The notes under the pieces: model-generated
Databases searched by the model: none
What the model was told of the DNA's origin: nothing
Seen by the model: the letters and a program-made list of their open reading frames with translations, nothing else
DNA from: a virus
Taxonomy: Duplodnaviria; Heunggongvirae; Uroviricota; Caudoviricetes
IMG/VR virus record: IMGVR_UViG_2923350032_000001
Coordinates: 750-64,749 of that record
Length of the DNA: 64,000 bases
Direction: 5' to 3' (one strand)
Program-made: the position numbers and the translations under genes
In this document: positions 2,806 through 49,871 of the stretch, in pieces
How the letters are laid out: every line of letters begins with the position of its first letter
Numbering within the stretch: position 1 is the first letter of the stretch

Positions 2806-4364
2806 TTCTGCACCTCGCAGCCTTCAATTTCAGCCACAATCGCATCAATATCTTTGCGCAACTGGTCGATTTTGCTGACCGTGATTTTCAGCTCTGCATT
2901 CAACTCAGCGATATCGATAATTTCGCGAGTATCTTTCGCTTCAACATAGCTGCTCACCGACAGGTTATAGTCATTAGCGACAACGGCTTCAAACGCGACA
3001 GATTTCGCCAGATGGGCAACATCTTCCTTGCTGGCAAATACCTGCATAATCTGTTCGATATGAGCATCGGTCAGAATGTTGTTGTTAGTCTCTTTTTTGA
3101 ACAGTTCGCTGGCATCAATAAACTGAACTTTGGTATCCGTTTTATGTTTAGACAGCACCAGAATATTGACGGCAATAGTGGTGCCAAAGAACAGATTCGG
3201 TGCCAGTGAAATCACGGTTTCGACATAGTTATTATCAACCAGATACTGACGGATTTTCTGCTCCGCGCCGCCACGGTAAAAAATACCCGGGAAGCAAACA
3301 ATCGCAGCACGACCTTTGGCAGAAAGATAGTTCAGCGCATGTAGTACAAAGGCGAAGTCAGCTTTTGATTTGGGGGCCAGAACGCCAGCCGGGGCAAAAC
3401 GCTCATCGTTAATCAGAGTCGGGTCATCGCTGCCAATCCATTTCACCGAATACGGCGGGTTAGAAACGATGGCATCAAACGGTTTTTCATCTCTGAAGTG
3501 CGGTTCAGTCAGCGTATTGCCCAGCTTGATATCAAACTTGTCGTAGTTGATGTTGTGCAAAAACATGTTCATACGCGCCAGGTTATAGGTCGTATGGTTG
3601 ATTTCCTGACCAAAAAAACCTTCTTCGATGATATGGTCATCAAACTGTTTTTTAGCCTGCAACAACAGCGAACCGGAGCCTGCTGCCGGGTCGTAGATTT
3701 TGTTAACGTGGGTCTGCCCGTGCATAGCCAGTTGTGCAATCAGCTTAGAGACGTGCTGCGGTGTAAAGAACTCGCCGCCTGACTTACCGGCATTCGCCGC
3801 ATAGTTAGAAATCAGGAACTCATAGGCGTCACCGAACAGGTCAATCTGATGTTCGTGGAAGTCACCAAGTTTTAGCCCTTCAACCCCTTTCAGAACTGCA
3901 GCCAGGCGGGCATTTTTATCTTTAACGGTGTTACCCAGGCGGTTACTGGTAGTATCGAAATCAGCAAACAAACCTTTGATGTCAGCTTCTGAAGGGTAAC
4001 CGTAAGCAGAACTTTCGATAGCAACGAAGATGCTGTTTAAATCCGCATTCAGTCTGTCATTGGTATTTGCTTTCGCAGCTACGTTGCAGAAAAGCTGACT
4101 GGGGTAGATGAAGTAACCTTTGGTTTTGATGGCATCGTCTTTAATGTCATCAGTAATTACGCTGTCATCCAGTTTCGCATAACAGATACTGTCATCACCG
4201 GCTTCAATATAGCTGGAAAAATTTTCGCTGATAAAACGGTAAAAAAGCGCGCCCAAAACGTACTGCTTAAAATCCCATCCATCGACTGAACCCCTGACAT
4301 CGTTAGCAATTTGCCAGATTTGACGATGAAGCTCTGCACGTTGTTGAATACTTGTCATTTTCAT
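2802..4364 (-). CDS. hsdM: Type I RM N6-adenine DNA methyltransferase HsdM
   Basis: 520-aa ORF with NPPY catalytic motif ([10 protein letters not shown]) and AdoMet-binding region ([10 protein letters not shown]). Confidence 0.92.
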
Positions 4365-42615: not shown

Positions 42616-43513
42616 GCACTGGAAAAACATTACTATTTATAAACTTTCTCGTGAGGCGGATCTGACCGACTTAGAAGATAAAAAGAAAATGATCCTTTTC
42701 ACGCCATGCGGTAGTCAGGATATGGCCAAGTTCGGTTTTGTATCGCCATTTGGTGATAATTCCGAAGTTATCGCTATGCATGGAAATGGTTTTATCCTTG
42801 TTGAAGCAAAGCGCGAAACAAAAATTCTTCCCCCGCCGGTTATCCAGCGAGCTATTCAAGAAAAAATTGAAAAACTTGAGCAAGAACAAGCGCGTAAACT
42901 GAAGAAAACAGAGAAGGACTCCCTGAAAGACGAAGTTCTGCATTCTCTTCTGCCACGGGCTTTTTCAAAGTTTTCTGTTATCCAGGCGATCTACGACGGT
43001 TCAACTAAACGTATCTATATCAATGCCAGCGCGCGGCAGGCAGAGGATATGCTCGCGCTTATGCGTAAATCTCTGGGTTCTCTTCCTGTTGTTCCCCTAA
43101 GTGTTGAAAATCCCATTGAATTAACGCTGACCGACTGGGTACGTGATGGTAGTGCTCCACAGGGATTTCAAATGGGGGATGCGGCAGAACTTAAGGCAGT
43201 GCTTGAGGATGGCGGTATTGCCCGAGTGAAAAAGCAGGACTTGGGAAGTGATGAAATATCCACACACCTGGAAGCTGGCAAGCTCGTCACTAAGTTGGCA
43301 CTCGACTGGCAGAACCGCATTAAATTTACACTGGACCATAACTTCAGCCTTACCAGCGTCAAATTTGCGGATGAATTGCTTGAGCAGAACTCTGATATTG
43401 ATAGTGAAGATGTTGCGCAGCGACTGGACGCAGATTTCTTCCTATTGACCAGTGAAATTTCGTGCCTGGTTGATGCTCTGGTAAATGCCCTTGGTGGAGA
43501 GGCTAAGCAGTGA
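42608..43513 (+). CDS. hrdC: RdgC-like recombination-associated protein
   Basis: RdgC-like sequence ...[13 protein letters not shown]...[21 protein letters not shown]...ALDWQNRI...; start placed at Met 42608. Confidence 0.85.
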
Positions 43514-46500
43514 AAGAGCTGTGCTATGGATCTGTTTGCAGTGGAATTGAAGCCGCGAGTATTGCCTGGGAACCGTTGGGTATGCGTCCGGTTTGGTTTG
43601 CTGAAATCGAGCCTTTTCCATCGGCCGTTCTTGCGCTCCGCTGGCCCCATGTCGCCAACCTTGGCGACATGACAAAACTTGCCAAAAAAGTCTTGGCTGG
43701 GGAAATCGAATCCCCTGACGTGCTCGTCGGGGGAACACCATGTTTTACCGCGGGGCATATGGTTCTTTGTAAAAATGGTTATAAACCAATAGAAGATATT
43801 TGCCCTGGCGATTACGTAGTCAGTCATCTCGGGCGGTTACAACAAGTAAAAAGAGTTGGTTCAAAAATAGCTAATACGGGGTTACTTAATGCCGTTGGGC
43901 AGCCTTTAGGTATAAGAACAACCAATGACCATCCCTTCCTGGCGGTTCGGTGGAAAGCCCAAAACACCCGGAAAAATGGCACATATTTTAAGAGAGAGTT
44001 GTTGTCTGAACCGGAATGGCGAGCAGCATGTGATATGCCGGGATATCAATGGTGCGCTCTAACTAATTTCAATATTGCATCTCCAGATATTTGTTCTCGG
44101 TTCTTGTCTGAAGAACAGGCTATGTATCTTGCGGGCGCTTATGTTGGCGATGGATATATTAGGAGATGGAGAGGTAAATCTAAGAAGGCGGTTGTTTTTG
44201 GCATAAATTGCCAGAAATTGAGAAAGTTTCATTGCCGCATACCAGAAAACATATTTTCCGTGGCAAGCGAAATCCGAGGGAGCATCAAAGTAACCTTGAA
44301 TGATACGTGTTATGCCAATTGGCTTAATGAACATTTTGGCGAGTTAAGCCATGCTAAGCGTATCCCTGCATGGGTGATGTCGCATCCATTGCGTCATGTG
44401 TTTTTACAAGGCTATCTTGATACTGATGGGACACCAAGTGGTAAAGCGGGATTTAGAATTAATAGTGTTAGTCCTGCGCTTGCTTGGGGCGTTGCGGGGT
44501 TGTCACAGACTTGTGGTTATGTTTCTTCGGTCAGCTTTATTGAAGTTGAGCCCAAAAAAGTGATCGAGGATCGCGTGGTAAATCAACGGAATTATTATCA
44601 GGTAACAATCTGCCCGCAGAAATTGTCACGTAAATCAAGATTGGCTCATGGAATGCTTTTACGAACAGTCAAAGAGTTTAAATCGGTAGGCCTAGATACT
44701 GTATACAACATAGAAGTCGAAGGTGATCATTCCTATATCCTCAATGGTGCGGTGGTCCATAACTGTCAGGCATTCAGTATCGCGGGCTTACGTGGTGGGC
44801 TTGATGATGAACGCGGCGCGCTAACTTTGAAGTATGTGGAGCTTGCAAATGCAATTGACGACAAACGGTCTGAGTCCTTCCTCAAACCGACAGTTATCGT
44901 CTGGGAAAATGTCCCAGGAGTCCTGTCATCGGCAGATAACGCCTTCGGATGTTTCCTTGCCGGATTGGCTGGAGAAGATGCGCCATTTGAACCAGGTGAT
45001 CGACCTGAATCAGGAAAAAGTAACGCGTTCTGGCGGTGGGATGGCAAAACCGGTTGCCATGCTCCAAAGTGGCCGCAGTGTGGTTGTATTTATGGACCGC
45101 AGCGAAAGGTGGCCTGGAGAATCCTTGATGCCCAATACTTCGGAGTGGCACAACGACGCCGACGCGTGTTTGTTGTCGCAAGTGCTCGAACAGACCTCGA
45201 TCCCGCAACGGTACTTTTTGAGTTCGAAGGCGAGCGCCGGGATATTGCGCCGAGCAGAGGCGAGGGGAAGGAAACTACCAGATATACTTCAAACATCGCT
45301 ATCAGATCTTGCGATGATACAAACATAATTGCCATGGCACATGGGCAAGGAGGGGCTGAGATAAAAACCGATAATTCGGCACCAACTTTGACATGTAACC
45401 ATGAAGCACCAATTGTATTGCTCGGCGACGATAGAATGCGCCGTCTTACCCCTGTCGAATGTGAAAGGCTGCAAGGTTTTCCTGATTGGCATACGTTGAT
45501 CCCTACGGGAAAGCGTAAAAAAGTTTCTTCAGATGAACTGGCATACCTTCGCAATAACTATCCTGATTTAAACGAAGAAGAGGCCGCGATGCTTGCAGCT
45601 GACGGACCGCGTTACAAAGCGATCGGAAATAGTATGGCAATACCAGTAATGCGCTGGATTGGCGATCGGATTACTAAGGCTGCATGTCGGCAAAAAGAAG
45701 GGAGTGAAACAAAAGAGCGAAAGGTTAAACCAGCGGCAGAATTCGAACGGCCCATATTCAAATGGGCTGGTGGAAAATTTGGTGTTCTGGAACAAATCTT
45801 TCGCTATTTGCCAGAAGGGAAGCGCCTGATTGAACCTTTCGTTGGTGGCGGAGCTGTCTTCATGAATGCCGGATATCAGGAAAATCTGCTAAATGATGTG
45901 AATGCTGACCTGATTAACTTTTACAAGACTCTGCAACGTGAGGCGCATTCACTTATCACTCTGGCACATCGTTTCTTCCTGTACTACAACACCCAGGAGG
46001 GATTCCTGGCAGTACGGAATGCGTTTAACAAACAAGTCTATGATGATTTACATCGCGCAGCGGCGTTTTTGTTCCTGAACCGACATTGTTTTAATGGATT
46101 GACGCGCTACAACCAGGCCGGTGAGTTCAATGTCGGGTATGGGAAGTATAAGTCTACGCATTTTCCATTACAGGAGATGGAAGCCTTCCTCGGTGCGGAA
46201 GGGCGGTCTGAGTTTGTATGCGGTGATTTTGCAGCGGTGATTGAAGCTGCCGGAGAAGGAGATGTCATCTTTTGCGATCCGCCGTATGAACCGCTCCCCA
46301 ATACAGAGGGGTTCACGAACTATTCCGGTCATGACTTTAAGTTTGAAGAGCAAAAACGCCTGGTGTCTCTGTTGACGGATGCTCATCGCCGAGGTGCAAA
46401 GGTTCTCATTACTAACAGTGGCGCGCCAAACATCAGAGAACTTTATCAGGACAGTGGCTTCAGAGTGGAACCTCTTTTTGCCAGACGTTCTGTGTCTTGT

Positions 46501-46551
46501 AAGGGAGACACTCGTGGTGTTGCTCATGACGTTATAGCAATATTGCTCTAA
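43510..46551 (+). CDS. dmt: bifunctional DNA methyltransferase Dmt (N-terminal C5-cytosine MTase interrupted by an intein; C-terminal Dam-like N6-adenine MTase)
   Basis: C5 motifs [28 protein letters not shown]; Dam-like FVGGGAVF and DPPY; GTG start overlapping hrdC stop. Confidence 0.85.
43741..44763 (+). other. intein with LAGLIDADG homing-endonuclease domain, in frame within dmt
   Basis: starts Cys (CFTAGHMVL), block [18 protein letters not shown] and LQGYLDTDG, ends [21 protein letters not shown] followed by Cys; excision restores [12 protein letters not shown]. Confidence 0.8.
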
Positions 46552-46558
46552 TTAATTT
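46542..46558 (+). promoter_or_regulatory. C1 operator-like site overlapping the dmt stop codon
   Basis: ATTGCTCTAATtAATTT; dmt ends ...gca ata ttg ctc taa. Confidence 0.5.
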
Positions 46559-46736
46559 ATTAGTGTAATATCGAATCAATGAATCGTGATTTTTAGAGCG
46601 ATTTAGCTGTTAGCCGCGACAGGCGCGGCGGTAAGCATGGCTGGGCCTAGTCCTCCCAGACAAACCACCGAGTTGCCAGGTTGACCATGCGCCTAAGTGG
46701 CAACTCCGAAGTGCGTAACGAGCTTCCATCCAGTTT

Positions 46737-46762
46737 GCCCATCTTCGGGTGGGCGTTTTTTT
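46737..46762 (+). terminator. rho-independent terminator (GCCCATC-ttcg-GGTGGGC + T7)
   Basis: 7-bp stem with tetraloop followed by GTTTTTTT. Confidence 0.65.
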
Positions 46763-46915
46763 CAGGGGTTTCGTCATGGTTAGCGACTTTGCGGCGGTTT
46801 AGCGAAAAACGCCGTAAACCCTCGCCTAATGCGGGCGGGTATATAAGGCGAAAAGCCAACAGGGCTTTAAAAAAATCATTACGGTGTTAGCATAAAAAGC
46901 CTGTATCAATGAGCA

Positions 46916-48091
46916 GTGACTATGTTAAGAGCAACAAAAGTACGTATATACCCCACTCCTGAACAGGCAGAGTACCTCAATGCCCAGTTCGGTGCAGTGC
47001 GCTTTGCGTACAACAAAGCTCTTCACATCAAAAAACATGCTTACCAGAGACACGGAGTAAATTTAAGTCCGCGTAACGATCTGAAACCGTTGTTGTCTGT
47101 GGCCAAAAAGTCCCGCAGGTATGCCTGGCTCAAAGAGTTTGATTCAATGGCATTGCAACAGGCGGTAATTAATCTTGATGTGGCATTTTCCAACTTTTTT
47201 AATCCGAAGCGGAAAGCGCGGTTCCCGACGTTTAAACGTAAACACGGAAAACAATCGAGCTATCACTGTGTCGGAGTTAAGGTGCTGGATAATGCCATCA
47301 AAATTCCTAAACTGTCCCCAATAGAAGCACGCCTTCATCGTGAACTTCATGGAAAGCTGAAAAGCATCACTATCACCCGTTCAGCAACGGGGAAATACTA
47401 TGCTTCAATTCTCTGTGATGATGGTCTGGAAGCTCCGGTAAAACCCACGTTGATATCAACAGTTACTGGCCTGGATATGGGGCTTGAGCACTACGCCATC
47501 AGGTCTGACGGAGCAAAAATTGCGAATCCCCGCCATCTCATCAATGCCAGCCGTAATCTGCGACGCAAACAAAAAGCGTTATCCCGCAAGCAAAAGGGAA
47601 GCGCGAATCGTAAAAAGGCCAGAATCCGTCTGGCAGCGTTACACGAACGGGTGGCTAATGCCCGTGCTGATTTTCAACACAAGCTCTCTCGTACAATTGT
47701 TGACGAAAACCAAGCGGTAATTGTCGAGACGCTGAAAACAGCCAACATGATGAAAAACCACAATCTGGCAAGAGTGATAGGTGATGCAGGCTGGCATAGC
47801 TTCATCACAAGGCTGGAGTACAAGGCGGCGGAAAAAGGCGCTCACCTGGTAAAACTCGACCAGTGGTTTGCCAGTTCGAAAACGTGTCATTGTTGTGGTT
47901 ACAAGATGTCGGAAATGCCACTTCATAAACGCATCTGGCGATGCTCTGAATGTGGTATTGAACATGACCGCGACATCAATGCGGCGCTCAACATCCGGCA
48001 AAAAGGAATACTGGAACTGAAGGCGGCGGGACTCGTCGTCTCCGCCCATGGAGGCCAGCGTAAATCCGTCGCACAGACGGTTGTGGCCTGA
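46916..48091 (+). CDS. tnpB: TnpB (OrfB) RuvC-like RNA-guided endonuclease family protein
   Basis: 391-aa ORF with OrfB_IS605 organisation, RuvC-like D/E/D positions and C-terminal zinc finger CHCCG...CSECG. Confidence 0.85.
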   Translation: MTMLRATKVRIYPTPEQAEYLNAQFGAVRFAYNKALHIKKHAYQRHGVNLSPRNDLKPLLSVAKKSRRYAWLKEFDSMALQQAVINLDVAFSNFFNPKRKARFPTFKRKHGKQSSYHCVGVKVLDNAIKIPKLSPIEARLHRELHGKLKSITITRSATGKYYASILCDDGLEAPVKPTLISTVTGLDMGLEHYAIRSDGAKIANPRHLINASRNLRRKQKALSRKQKGSANRKKARIRLAALHERVANARADFQHKLSRTIVDENQAVIVETLKTANMMKNHNLARVIGDAGWHSFITRLEYKAAEKGAHLVKLDQWFASSKTCHCCGYKMSEMPLHKRIWRCSECGIEHDRDINAALNIRQKGILELKAAGLVVSAHGGQRKSVAQTVVA

Positions 48092-48935
48092 GAAGTGGGA
48101 AGCCTCGCCCGACAGGGCGGGGAGCAGTCACAAACTGACCATTAAAGTAAATGCAAACGATGATCTGATGATGGTTGCGGCCTAAGAAGCCTGACACCAC
48201 GGGGTTGTCCCCGTCTGTGTATTAGGGAACGAGGAGGCATAACAGGCAGGGGCGCTGGTTTGATTAACCAGATGAACGAGAAGGGGCCATCTTCTGGTCA
48301 GCGTCCTTACCTGTTACGTCCTTTTTCATTCAGCGTAACAGCCGGTTCTTAACAGCCTTTGGGTAGAGTTCCTCGTATTTACGGGTATATTCCGTCATGC
48401 TGAAGGCGCTAATCACGCTGGAAGCTAGGGGGGATCCCCTGTTACCGAATTGCAGCCAGGGCGCGGGTGTAGTGGTTTATTGATTGTTACGGCGCATTCT
48501 GGGCTGTACTAAATTTCTGCGCCTAATACTACTACACTTGCCGTTTACTGATGTGTGGTATGTTGCATATGGGCAACACACTCAAGCCTGATGCAGCACG
48601 GTCAGGTAGGGGACGCCGACCTAATGTCTCGCCCTGCAAGGGCGGACGAAAGTAGATCACTATTCCGCGCAGCTATTTAGAAAGAACAGGTATTGAATTA
48701 CCTGGAGAACAACTTACTTACGTTTCCGCCACACCTTCGCTAGTTACTTTATGATGAATGATGGTAATATTCTGGTATTGTAACGAGTGCTCAGATATAC
48801 TTACATCTAAATAACAATGATATATGTTCAATTTAACCTTGAATATTTTGTAATGTTACACGACTTTAAAATTTAGAAGAAGAGGATTCGGTTGAATCCG
48901 ATATTAAATCTGAGACAGGAATATAAGGTTACACG

Positions 48936-49871
48936 ATGAAGCTTAAAAAACTACAATCTCTTGATTTTGTGAATGATTTTATGAGTCACCTAGAAACTGA
49001 TTTTGAAAAAGAATTATTCACAGCTTGTTTGCGAAATTATGCATCACATGGCAACCCATTACGTTTTCATAACTTTGCATTTTCAATTCGCGAGCTAATA
49101 AAGCATATTATCGAGAAAAAATCTCCGAATGATAAATTATTACAAGCATCGTGGTATAAGAGAGAACATGAACATTACGAAATATCTAGAAGACAGCGTT
49201 TAAAATACTGTTCTCAAGCTAAAATTTCAGATGCGTACTTGGGGGAAGAGTTCCTGGAGGAGTCGAATGAAAGAATAGATGAGATGCTTAAGCTTTATTT
49301 CTTCTTAAATAAATATACGCATATAACAGAGAAATATATGCATCCATCACCTCAAGAGTTCTTCCTGAAGGCCAAACAAATACTGCAGATCGCTACAGAA
49401 ATACTAAATGGTATACATATTTGTAGAGATGAATTAATTCGTACTCTCGAAGATAAAATTAGAAATGCAGTTATTGACACGGCGGTAAGCTCTATGCCTG
49501 AAAACCTAGTGACTATCGCGAATCATGCGTATGTAGATTACACTGAAGTCGAAGAATTTGGAATCACGTCGATTGATGATGAGTACATCAATATATATGC
49601 TTCCGGTACTGTCTATGTTACTCAAGAATATGGTTCTAGGAATGATGGGGTTAGCCTAGAAGAAAGTTATCCGTTCACGTTGCACATGGCTTCTCACTTA
49701 GACTCTCCTGAAACATTTGAAGTCATATCTGAAGCTTTAGAGGTAGACACTTCATCGTGGTACGATGATGGGGAGCAGGAGGATCAAATGATGGATATGG
49801 AAAGAAATGAAATTCATCGAATATCTGTTGCACCCCCAGACTTTGAGATGGATGACAATGTACCATTCTAA
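48936..49871 (+). CDS. hypothetical protein, AT-rich orphan gene with acidic C-terminus
   Basis: 311-aa ORF with strong codon periodicity in a low-GC island; no recognised motif. Confidence 0.55.
   Translation: MKLKKLQSLDFVNDFMSHLETDFEKELFTACLRNYASHGNPLRFHNFAFSIRELIKHIIEKKSPNDKLLQASWYKREHEHYEISRRQRLKYCSQAKISDAYLGEEFLEESNERIDEMLKLYFFLNKYTHITEKYMHPSPQEFFLKAKQILQIATEILNGIHICRDELIRTLEDKIRNAVIDTAVSSMPENLVTIANHAYVDYTEVEEFGITSIDDEYINIYASGTVYVTQEYGSRNDGVSLEESYPFTLHMASHLDSPETFEVISEALEVDTSSWYDDGEQEDQMMDMERNEIHRISVAPPDFEMDDNVPF

Follow-up and report, generated by a model that had tools for sequence, protein, structure and literature searches.

Members of the IS200/IS605 family of insertion sequences (ISs) are recognised by a Y1 (HUH) transposase, by subterminal imperfect palindromes instead of terminal inverted repeats, and by insertion 3' of a specific tetra- or pentanucleotide without target duplication. 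In IS608 of Helicobacter pylori, the mechanistic model for the transposase TnpA, cleavage takes place 19 nt 5' of the foot of the left hairpin and 10 nt 3' of the foot of the right one, and each cleavage site is read by a 4-nt guide lying just 5' of the hairpin foot (PMC3201880). ISDra2 of Deinococcus radiodurans provides the TnpB structures; its guide RNA is specified by the last part of tnpB together with the right end of the element, and the flank supplies the guide. In Escherichia coli, ISEc46 is named in RefSeq and its Prokaryotic Genome Annotation Pipeline (PGAP) and in the record of phage RCS47. Here we describe a 1329-bp insertion in a P1-like phage-plasmid, contained in a stretch of 64,000 nt (hereafter, the window; positions 750 to 64,749 of the IMG/VR Caudoviricetes record IMGVR_UViG_2923350032_000001). 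Very probably, it is a non-autonomous IS200/IS605 element of the ISEc46 lineage that lacks a Y1 tnpA gene and keeps both ends, an intact tnpB gene and a guide-RNA sequence that runs from the 3' part of tnpB into the right end, in a copy of recombinant origin. The kind of element is already known and catalogued: RefSeq annotates identical copies, and derivatives with tnpB only are common.

A first-pass annotation of this DNA had placed a TnpB-only IS200/IS605-type element directly downstream of the methyltransferase gene dmt, and had proposed a comparison with the equivalent region of P1. Blastn of the window against phage P1 (AF234172; locus L001) returned two collinear blocks, with window positions 46400-46802 matching positions 2501-2898 of the P1 locus, and 48132-48466 matching 2899-3268; therefore, the inserted DNA comprises exactly positions 46803-48131 (+ strand), and the target was not duplicated. 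With the junctions marked by a slash, the vacant site of P1 reads ...GCGGCGGTTTAG/AAACTGACC..., and the occupied site of the window reads ...GGTTTAG/CGAAAAACG...GAGCAGTCAC/AAACTGACC..., such that the vacant ...GGTTTAG/AAACTG... appears in the window as TTTAG/element/AAACTG. The element begins 251 bp past the dmt stop codon, about 230 bp past the C1 operator Oban (46542-46570, with one mismatch to the operator of P1) and 39 bp past a terminator (46736-46763). It sits in the leader of the ban operon, driven by the C1-controlled Pban promoters.

The comparison also corrected the extent of the element, first given as 46590-48140, in which the left boundary was wrong. Positions 46590-46802 are native P1 sequence, which includes a 'dicF-like' region, the perfect hairpin GCCGCGACAGGCGCGGC at 46613 and the terminator. 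There is next to no chance that this hairpin, or the terminator, is the left palindrome of an element spanning 46590-48140. The loop of the hairpin at 46613-46629 (ACAGG) does resemble that of the right-end hairpin (GACAGG), but P1 holds all of 46400-46802, hairpin included, at 95% identity and without any element, and independent copies of the element begin at 46803. The label 'dicF-like region' comes from the P1 record, where it covers the equivalent of window positions 46666-46768; the Rfam DicF model had no match at E<=1 in either the window or P1.

The same two end points recur elsewhere. In seven copies found in different contexts, similarity ends exactly at the points corresponding to 46803 and 48131, and so it does in about 60 relatives from many genera; because unrelated surroundings lose similarity at the same points, the ends of the element are not, by this comparison, a product of chance. 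The right terminus, ...GGGCGGGGAGCAGTCAC, is nearly invariant over these relatives (from Photorhabdus, Serratia, Aeromonas, Vibrio, Halomonas-type and other genera), and directly beyond it the flanks bear no relation to one another.

Both ends carry the similar subterminal palindromes that the first-pass annotation had noticed, although the left one lies inside 46803 and not in the native P1 DNA upstream. The left end (46803-46915, + strand) contains the tetranucleotide AAAC (46816-46819), an imperfect hairpin at 46820-46840 (arms CCTCGCCT and GGGCGGGT, loop AATGC) and then a tnpB-proximal remnant of the tnpA-tnpB intergenic region. The right-end transposition signals (48099-48131, + strand) are the tetranucleotide GAAG (48099-48102), a hairpin at 48103-48122 (arms CCTCGCCC and GGGCGGGG) and the right cleavage site TCAC (48128-48131). 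The two hairpins have in common the arms CCTCGCC(C)/GGGCGGG(G), including a T.G mismatch; otherwise the two ends are unrelated in sequence, and there are no terminal inverted repeats. As a DNA hairpin, the right one folds at -8.4 kcal/mol (z -2.2). The left one reaches -8.2 kcal/mol, compared with -13 kcal/mol in canonical ISEc46, and is weakened by two substitutions (46827 and 46840) that occur in all copies at the P1 site.

This layout is that of IS608. Relative to the hairpin feet, the cleavage sites are displaced by 17 nt in the 5' direction at the left and by 9 nt in the 3' direction at the right and, by the IS608 rule, a 4-nt guide is present 5' of each foot, AAAC for TTAG at the left and GAAG for TCAC at the right. 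The pair TTAG/AAAC parallels TTAC/AAAG of IS608, from which our element differs in the sequence of the hairpins, in the target and in not encoding TnpA. The target and left cleavage tetranucleotide TTAG (46799-46802, + strand) is flanking P1 DNA outside the element, present in the vacant site of P1 (...GGTTTAG/AAACTGACC), and would also serve as the transposon-associated motif (TAM) of TnpB. All the relatives have TTAG or TCAG directly 5' of their left end, as expected for insertion 3' of a specific tetranucleotide: TTAG in at least 35 loci, and TCAG in a subgroup from E. coli (L002-L006 and L092-L095). The left guide AAAC goes with TTAG and GAAC with TCAG, in a perfect association over 9 TCAG and at least 35 TTAG loci. 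This association may represent a single evolutionary event, and the TCAG/GAAC subgroup looks like a natural re-programming of the target through the left-end guide tetranucleotide, like that engineered in IS608. Judging from these flanks, the insertion point is set by the TTAG target; the initial remark that the element had landed in a transcription boundary, after a C1 operator and a terminator, is right about the place, and holds as a description of it rather than as evidence that such boundaries are targeted.

We found no Y1 tnpA in the element or in the whole window by tblastn with IS200 and IS608 TnpA queries (best E 1.2); in many relatives, the same queries did detect a Y1 gene, which is oriented divergently from tnpB and lies about 120 bp upstream. 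The transposase typical of the family is thus missing from this copy, in agreement with the first-pass annotation, and the possibility considered there of a larger characterised element with tnpA nearby does not apply, since the 1329-bp insertion has no room for that gene. Full-length relatives measure about 1765 bp and carry the divergent tnpA. Compared with them, nucleotides 1-69 of the element match the outer left end and nucleotides 83-128 match the stretch proximal to tnpB; in the alignment with one of them (L095, 1772 bp), a 443-bp gap located after 46849 corresponds to the tnpA region. Another copy (L107), between ptrB and yebE in an E. coli chromosome, is 1763 bp long, is flanked by TTAG and has a divergent tnpA, labelled in RefSeq as 'IS200/IS605-like element ISEc46 family transposase'. 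ISEc46 shares with our element the same hairpins, the right terminus GAGCAGTCAC, the TTAG target and the orientation of tnpB, and their TnpB proteins are 85% identical; the present copy differs in the loss of tnpA through a deletion of about 440 bp. On these alignments, the element is a tnpA-deleted, non-autonomous derivative of the ISEc46 family and not an autonomous member of it. DNA identity to the ISEc46 copies annotated in RefSeq and in RCS47 is 79-80% over tnpB and 88% over the left end; in usual IS naming practice, at around 79% identity over tnpB, this copy may be a distinct member.

Among 5426 complete E. coli genomes, 450 have the ISEc46 tnpA, which is located at 480 chromosomal places versus five on plasmids; the tnpB-bearing element is present in 838 complete E. 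coli records, with 398 places on plasmids. From the difference between five and 398 plasmid places, nearly all plasmid copies would lack tnpA, so that their mobility would need TnpA supplied in trans. Copies that are 97-98% identical were found in unrelated contexts, including IncI1-type and other plasmids and one chromosome.

The tnpB gene occupies positions 46916-48091 (+ strand) and, as first annotated, encodes a product of 391 amino acids (aa), starting at GTG 46916. RefSeq places the start at ATG 46922, giving a protein of 389 aa (WP_063099997.1, 'RNA-guided endonuclease InsQ/TnpB family protein'). The product contains the Pfam domains HTH_OrfB_IS605, OrfB_IS605 and Cas12f1-like_TNB, all well over their cut-offs, and aligns nearly full-length with the ISDra2 TnpB structures 8BF8, 8EXA and 8H1J (E 3e-78), with the same domain order and catalytic residues. 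The RuvC D-E-D triad is kept in this alignment, as D188 (GLDMG), E271 (VETL) and the motif HDRD at 350-353 (D351/D353), and both CxxC pairs of the zinc finger are present (CHCCG 324 and CSECG 343); the HTH/WED-REC, RuvC and zinc-finger TNB domains of a TnpB nuclease are all represented. The ratio of nonsynonymous to synonymous substitution rates (dN/dS) is 0.06-0.18 against diverged copies, including others without tnpA, from which tnpB is maintained by purifying selection.

ISDra2 differs from this lineage in its tnpA, which in the ISEc46 relatives is divergent, and in its TAM, which is TTGAT instead of TTAG or TCAG. At the positions aligned with what we take to be the TAM-contacting residues of ISDra2, the present TnpB has other residues. 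We also looked for TnpB residues separating the TCAG- from the TTAG-flanked copies and found none; likewise, the TnpBs of the RCS47 copy (TCAG) and of the chromosomal ISEc46 (TTAG) are 99% identical. Because of these two observations, TnpB is probably indifferent to T or C at that position of the TAM, and we dropped, on the same grounds, the idea that this TnpB is unable to read its own site.

A guide RNA had been expected to overlap the 3' end of tnpB and the right palindrome (about 47950-48140), and we found a predicted guide-RNA scaffold (also termed omegaRNA or reRNA) in that interval, at 48021-48131 (+ strand), with a 5' end that may reach about 47966. For this, we aligned 61 distinct right ends over their final 180 nt and folded the alignment with RNAalifold, which returned 34 base pairs, 18 of them with compensatory changes. 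Over the alignment, 98.1% of the cells are paired on the named structure, versus 86.7% in shuffled alignments (none of 500 shuffles reached the observed value) and 37-53% when the partners were slid by one to three columns; double changes amount to 189, versus 48 +/- 5 in the shuffles. The supported helices are 48021-28/48034-41, 48045-49/48095-99, 48053-59/48083-88, 48066-70/48076-80 and 48103-10/48115-22, the last one being the right-end hairpin. Three of the five lie wholly inside the tnpB coding sequence and a fourth one partly so, and the compensatory changes in these overlapping helices are therefore not explained by coding constraint. The covariation shows the right end to encode a structured RNA, here predicted from sequence, whose supported scaffold stops at the transposon boundary. 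RNAalifold also proposed a long-range helix of 3 bp (47966-68/48127-29), which we do not claim because it shows no compensatory change.

Abutting the right end, positions 48132-48147 (+ strand) are the P1 DNA AAACTGACCATTAAAG, which would form the 3' part of the guide RNA, for a guide of 16 nt as in ISDra2. The motif TTTAG followed by this 16-nt guide constitutes the vacant site, with exact occurrences in P1 and in 92 viral contigs from IMG/VR. In the occupied site, GTCAC takes the position of the TAM, and therefore the occupied site is not self-targeted. Among E. coli records, a 200-nt query of the vacant site was covered to at least 80% in 560, and the occupied left junction was present in 13.

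The origin of this copy is composite. In sliding comparisons, the other copies at the same P1 site (L007 and L088-L091) share the segment from 46803 to about 46900 at 100% identity. From about 46903 to 48050, identity is 98-100% with three copies from other plasmids (L003, L004 and L006), all of them flanked by TCAG, and 83-99% with L007; the last ca. 80 nt are again of the resident type. Among the 13 E. coli records with an occupied site, two match the window at 100% identity and the other 11, like L007, at about 94.6%. By this pattern of three segments, and by the two versus 11 occupied records, the copy is a recombinant, with ends resident at the P1 site and an interior of around 1150 bp from copies on other E. 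coli plasmids; the interior of an older resident copy was replaced by gene conversion.

From the biology of IS608 and of ISDra2 and GstIS605, we can propose how such an element would persist. TnpA supplied in trans, for example from a chromosomal ISEc46, would excise the top strand and insert it as single-stranded DNA at TTAG. TnpB, loaded with the RNA from the right end, whose last ca. 16 nt would correspond to AAACTGACCATTAAAG, would then cut any vacant copy of the site (TTTAG followed by the guide sequence), and homologous repair from an occupied copy would put the element back. Published work on TnpB by Karvelis (2021), Altae-Tran (2021) and Meers (2023) reportedly provides the basis for this mechanism.

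Several observations weigh against an element that is functional in this way. The tnpB interior derives, in our reconstruction, from copies flanked by TCAG, the site here is TTAG, and the fit between TnpB and this TAM is a prediction. No Rfam guide-RNA family matched at E<=1 over 46000-49000, where the only hit was a weak match of the transfer-messenger RNA (tmRNA) type just outside the element, and a simple scan for sigma-70 promoters found none in 46450-48500. Moreover, the weakened left hairpin of the copies at the P1 site may make excision by TnpA poor. The present copy could be a stranded relic, immobile at this site, with a TnpB that is functionless or that has been domesticated as a non-nuclease, as are the TldR-type RNA-guided regulators derived from TnpB; we consider this very unlikely. 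The absence of tnpA and the weakening of the left hairpin in every copy at the P1 site fit a relic, as does the occupation of the site in 13 E. coli records against 560 vacant ones, with no sign of efficient drive, and exapted TnpBs are known (PMC10705468). However, exapted, nuclease-dead regulators of the TldR type are characterised by the loss of RuvC residues and of transposon ends, and here the D-E-D triad, the zinc finger, the guide scaffold and the two ends are all intact. Besides, the low dN/dS includes copies without tnpA, and near-identical copies occupy several sites on other plasmids, so the lineage was recently mobile. We thus favour a non-autonomous element that retains an intact tnpB and its predicted guide RNA.

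The surroundings of the element depart from P1 in other respects. The upstream gene dmt (43510-46551), coding for a P1-type bifunctional methyltransferase, contains an intein of 341 aa (aa 78-418; window 43741-44763) with Hint and LAGLIDADG homing-endonuclease domains, which interrupts the C5-methylase motif precisely at its catalytic Cys (GGTP/CFTAG...VVHN/CQAFS, with slashes at the intein borders). The dmt gene lacks an intein in P1 and in the sister plasmid carrying L007, with a product of 754 aa, and the window also has other sequence in place of about 80 aa of the P1 protein (265-351).

Directly 3' of the element, at 48153-48185 (2920-2952 of the P1 locus L001), there is a frame resembling the tag of a tmRNA, GCA AAC GAT GAT CTG ATG ATG GTT GCG GCC TAA, which would be read as ANDDLMMVAA*. 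It has no start codon, is preceded by an in-frame stop, is native to P1 and is conserved in 90 P1-like contigs from IMG/VR, with the variants ANDDLMMAAA and ANDNLMMVAA. The Rfam model tmRNA_permuted scores 32 bits at this frame in the window and 24 bits in P1, both under the gathering score; with ARAGORN, neither the window nor the P1 stretch gave a tmRNA, and no tRNA-like domain was found.

Similarity to P1 ends at 48466 (compared with L001 3269-4017). In P1, genes for tRNA-Asn and tRNA-Thr follow around 60 bp further on, and then plp and upl; in their place, the window contains an integrase fragment, a gene at 48936-49871 (+ strand) and a glycosyltransferase fragment, and ARAGORN found no tRNA gene in the 64 kb. 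The gene codes for a protein of 311 aa (RefSeq hypothetical WP_064753586.1) with the domains pP_pnuc_1 and pP_pnuc_2 ('pPIWI-associating nuclease'; E ~1e-34 each), and no Argonaute or PIWI gene is annotated next to it in an identical plasmid.

Mears et al. (bioRxiv 10.1101/2025.02.20.638934) have proposed, and tested with the F plasmid, that a TnpB element carried by a plasmid targets relatives without it. As in that plasmid gene drive, ours is a tnpB-only IS200/IS605 (IS1341-type) element in a conserved region of a large, low-copy replicon, and its guide matches relatives of the replicon without the element; the carrier differs, being a conjugative plasmid in that system and, in our case, a P1-like phage-plasmid. 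Our literature searches on the TTAG TAM and on TnpB in phage-plasmids retrieved nothing specific. We consider it rather unlikely that P1-like phage-plasmids use this TnpB with its guide RNA against one another, as an RNA-guided weapon or a gene drive, and the low occupancy of the site, in 13 of around 573 records, argues against a strong drive. If they did, then in a lysogen with the occupied allele superinfecting or co-resident relatives of P1 would be cut at the ban-operon leader, and thereby excluded or converted; break-induced repair of this kind would have left its trace in the recombinant interior of this copy.

For annotation, our results provide the exact ends, the target motif, the guide-RNA scaffold and the guide of a common TnpB element of E. 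coli, and return positions 46590-46802 to the regulatory DNA of the phage. In all, with a predicted guide aimed at a site that is conserved in nearly all P1-like phage-plasmids, this element would be a natural test case for whether TnpB biases the competition between related plasmids.

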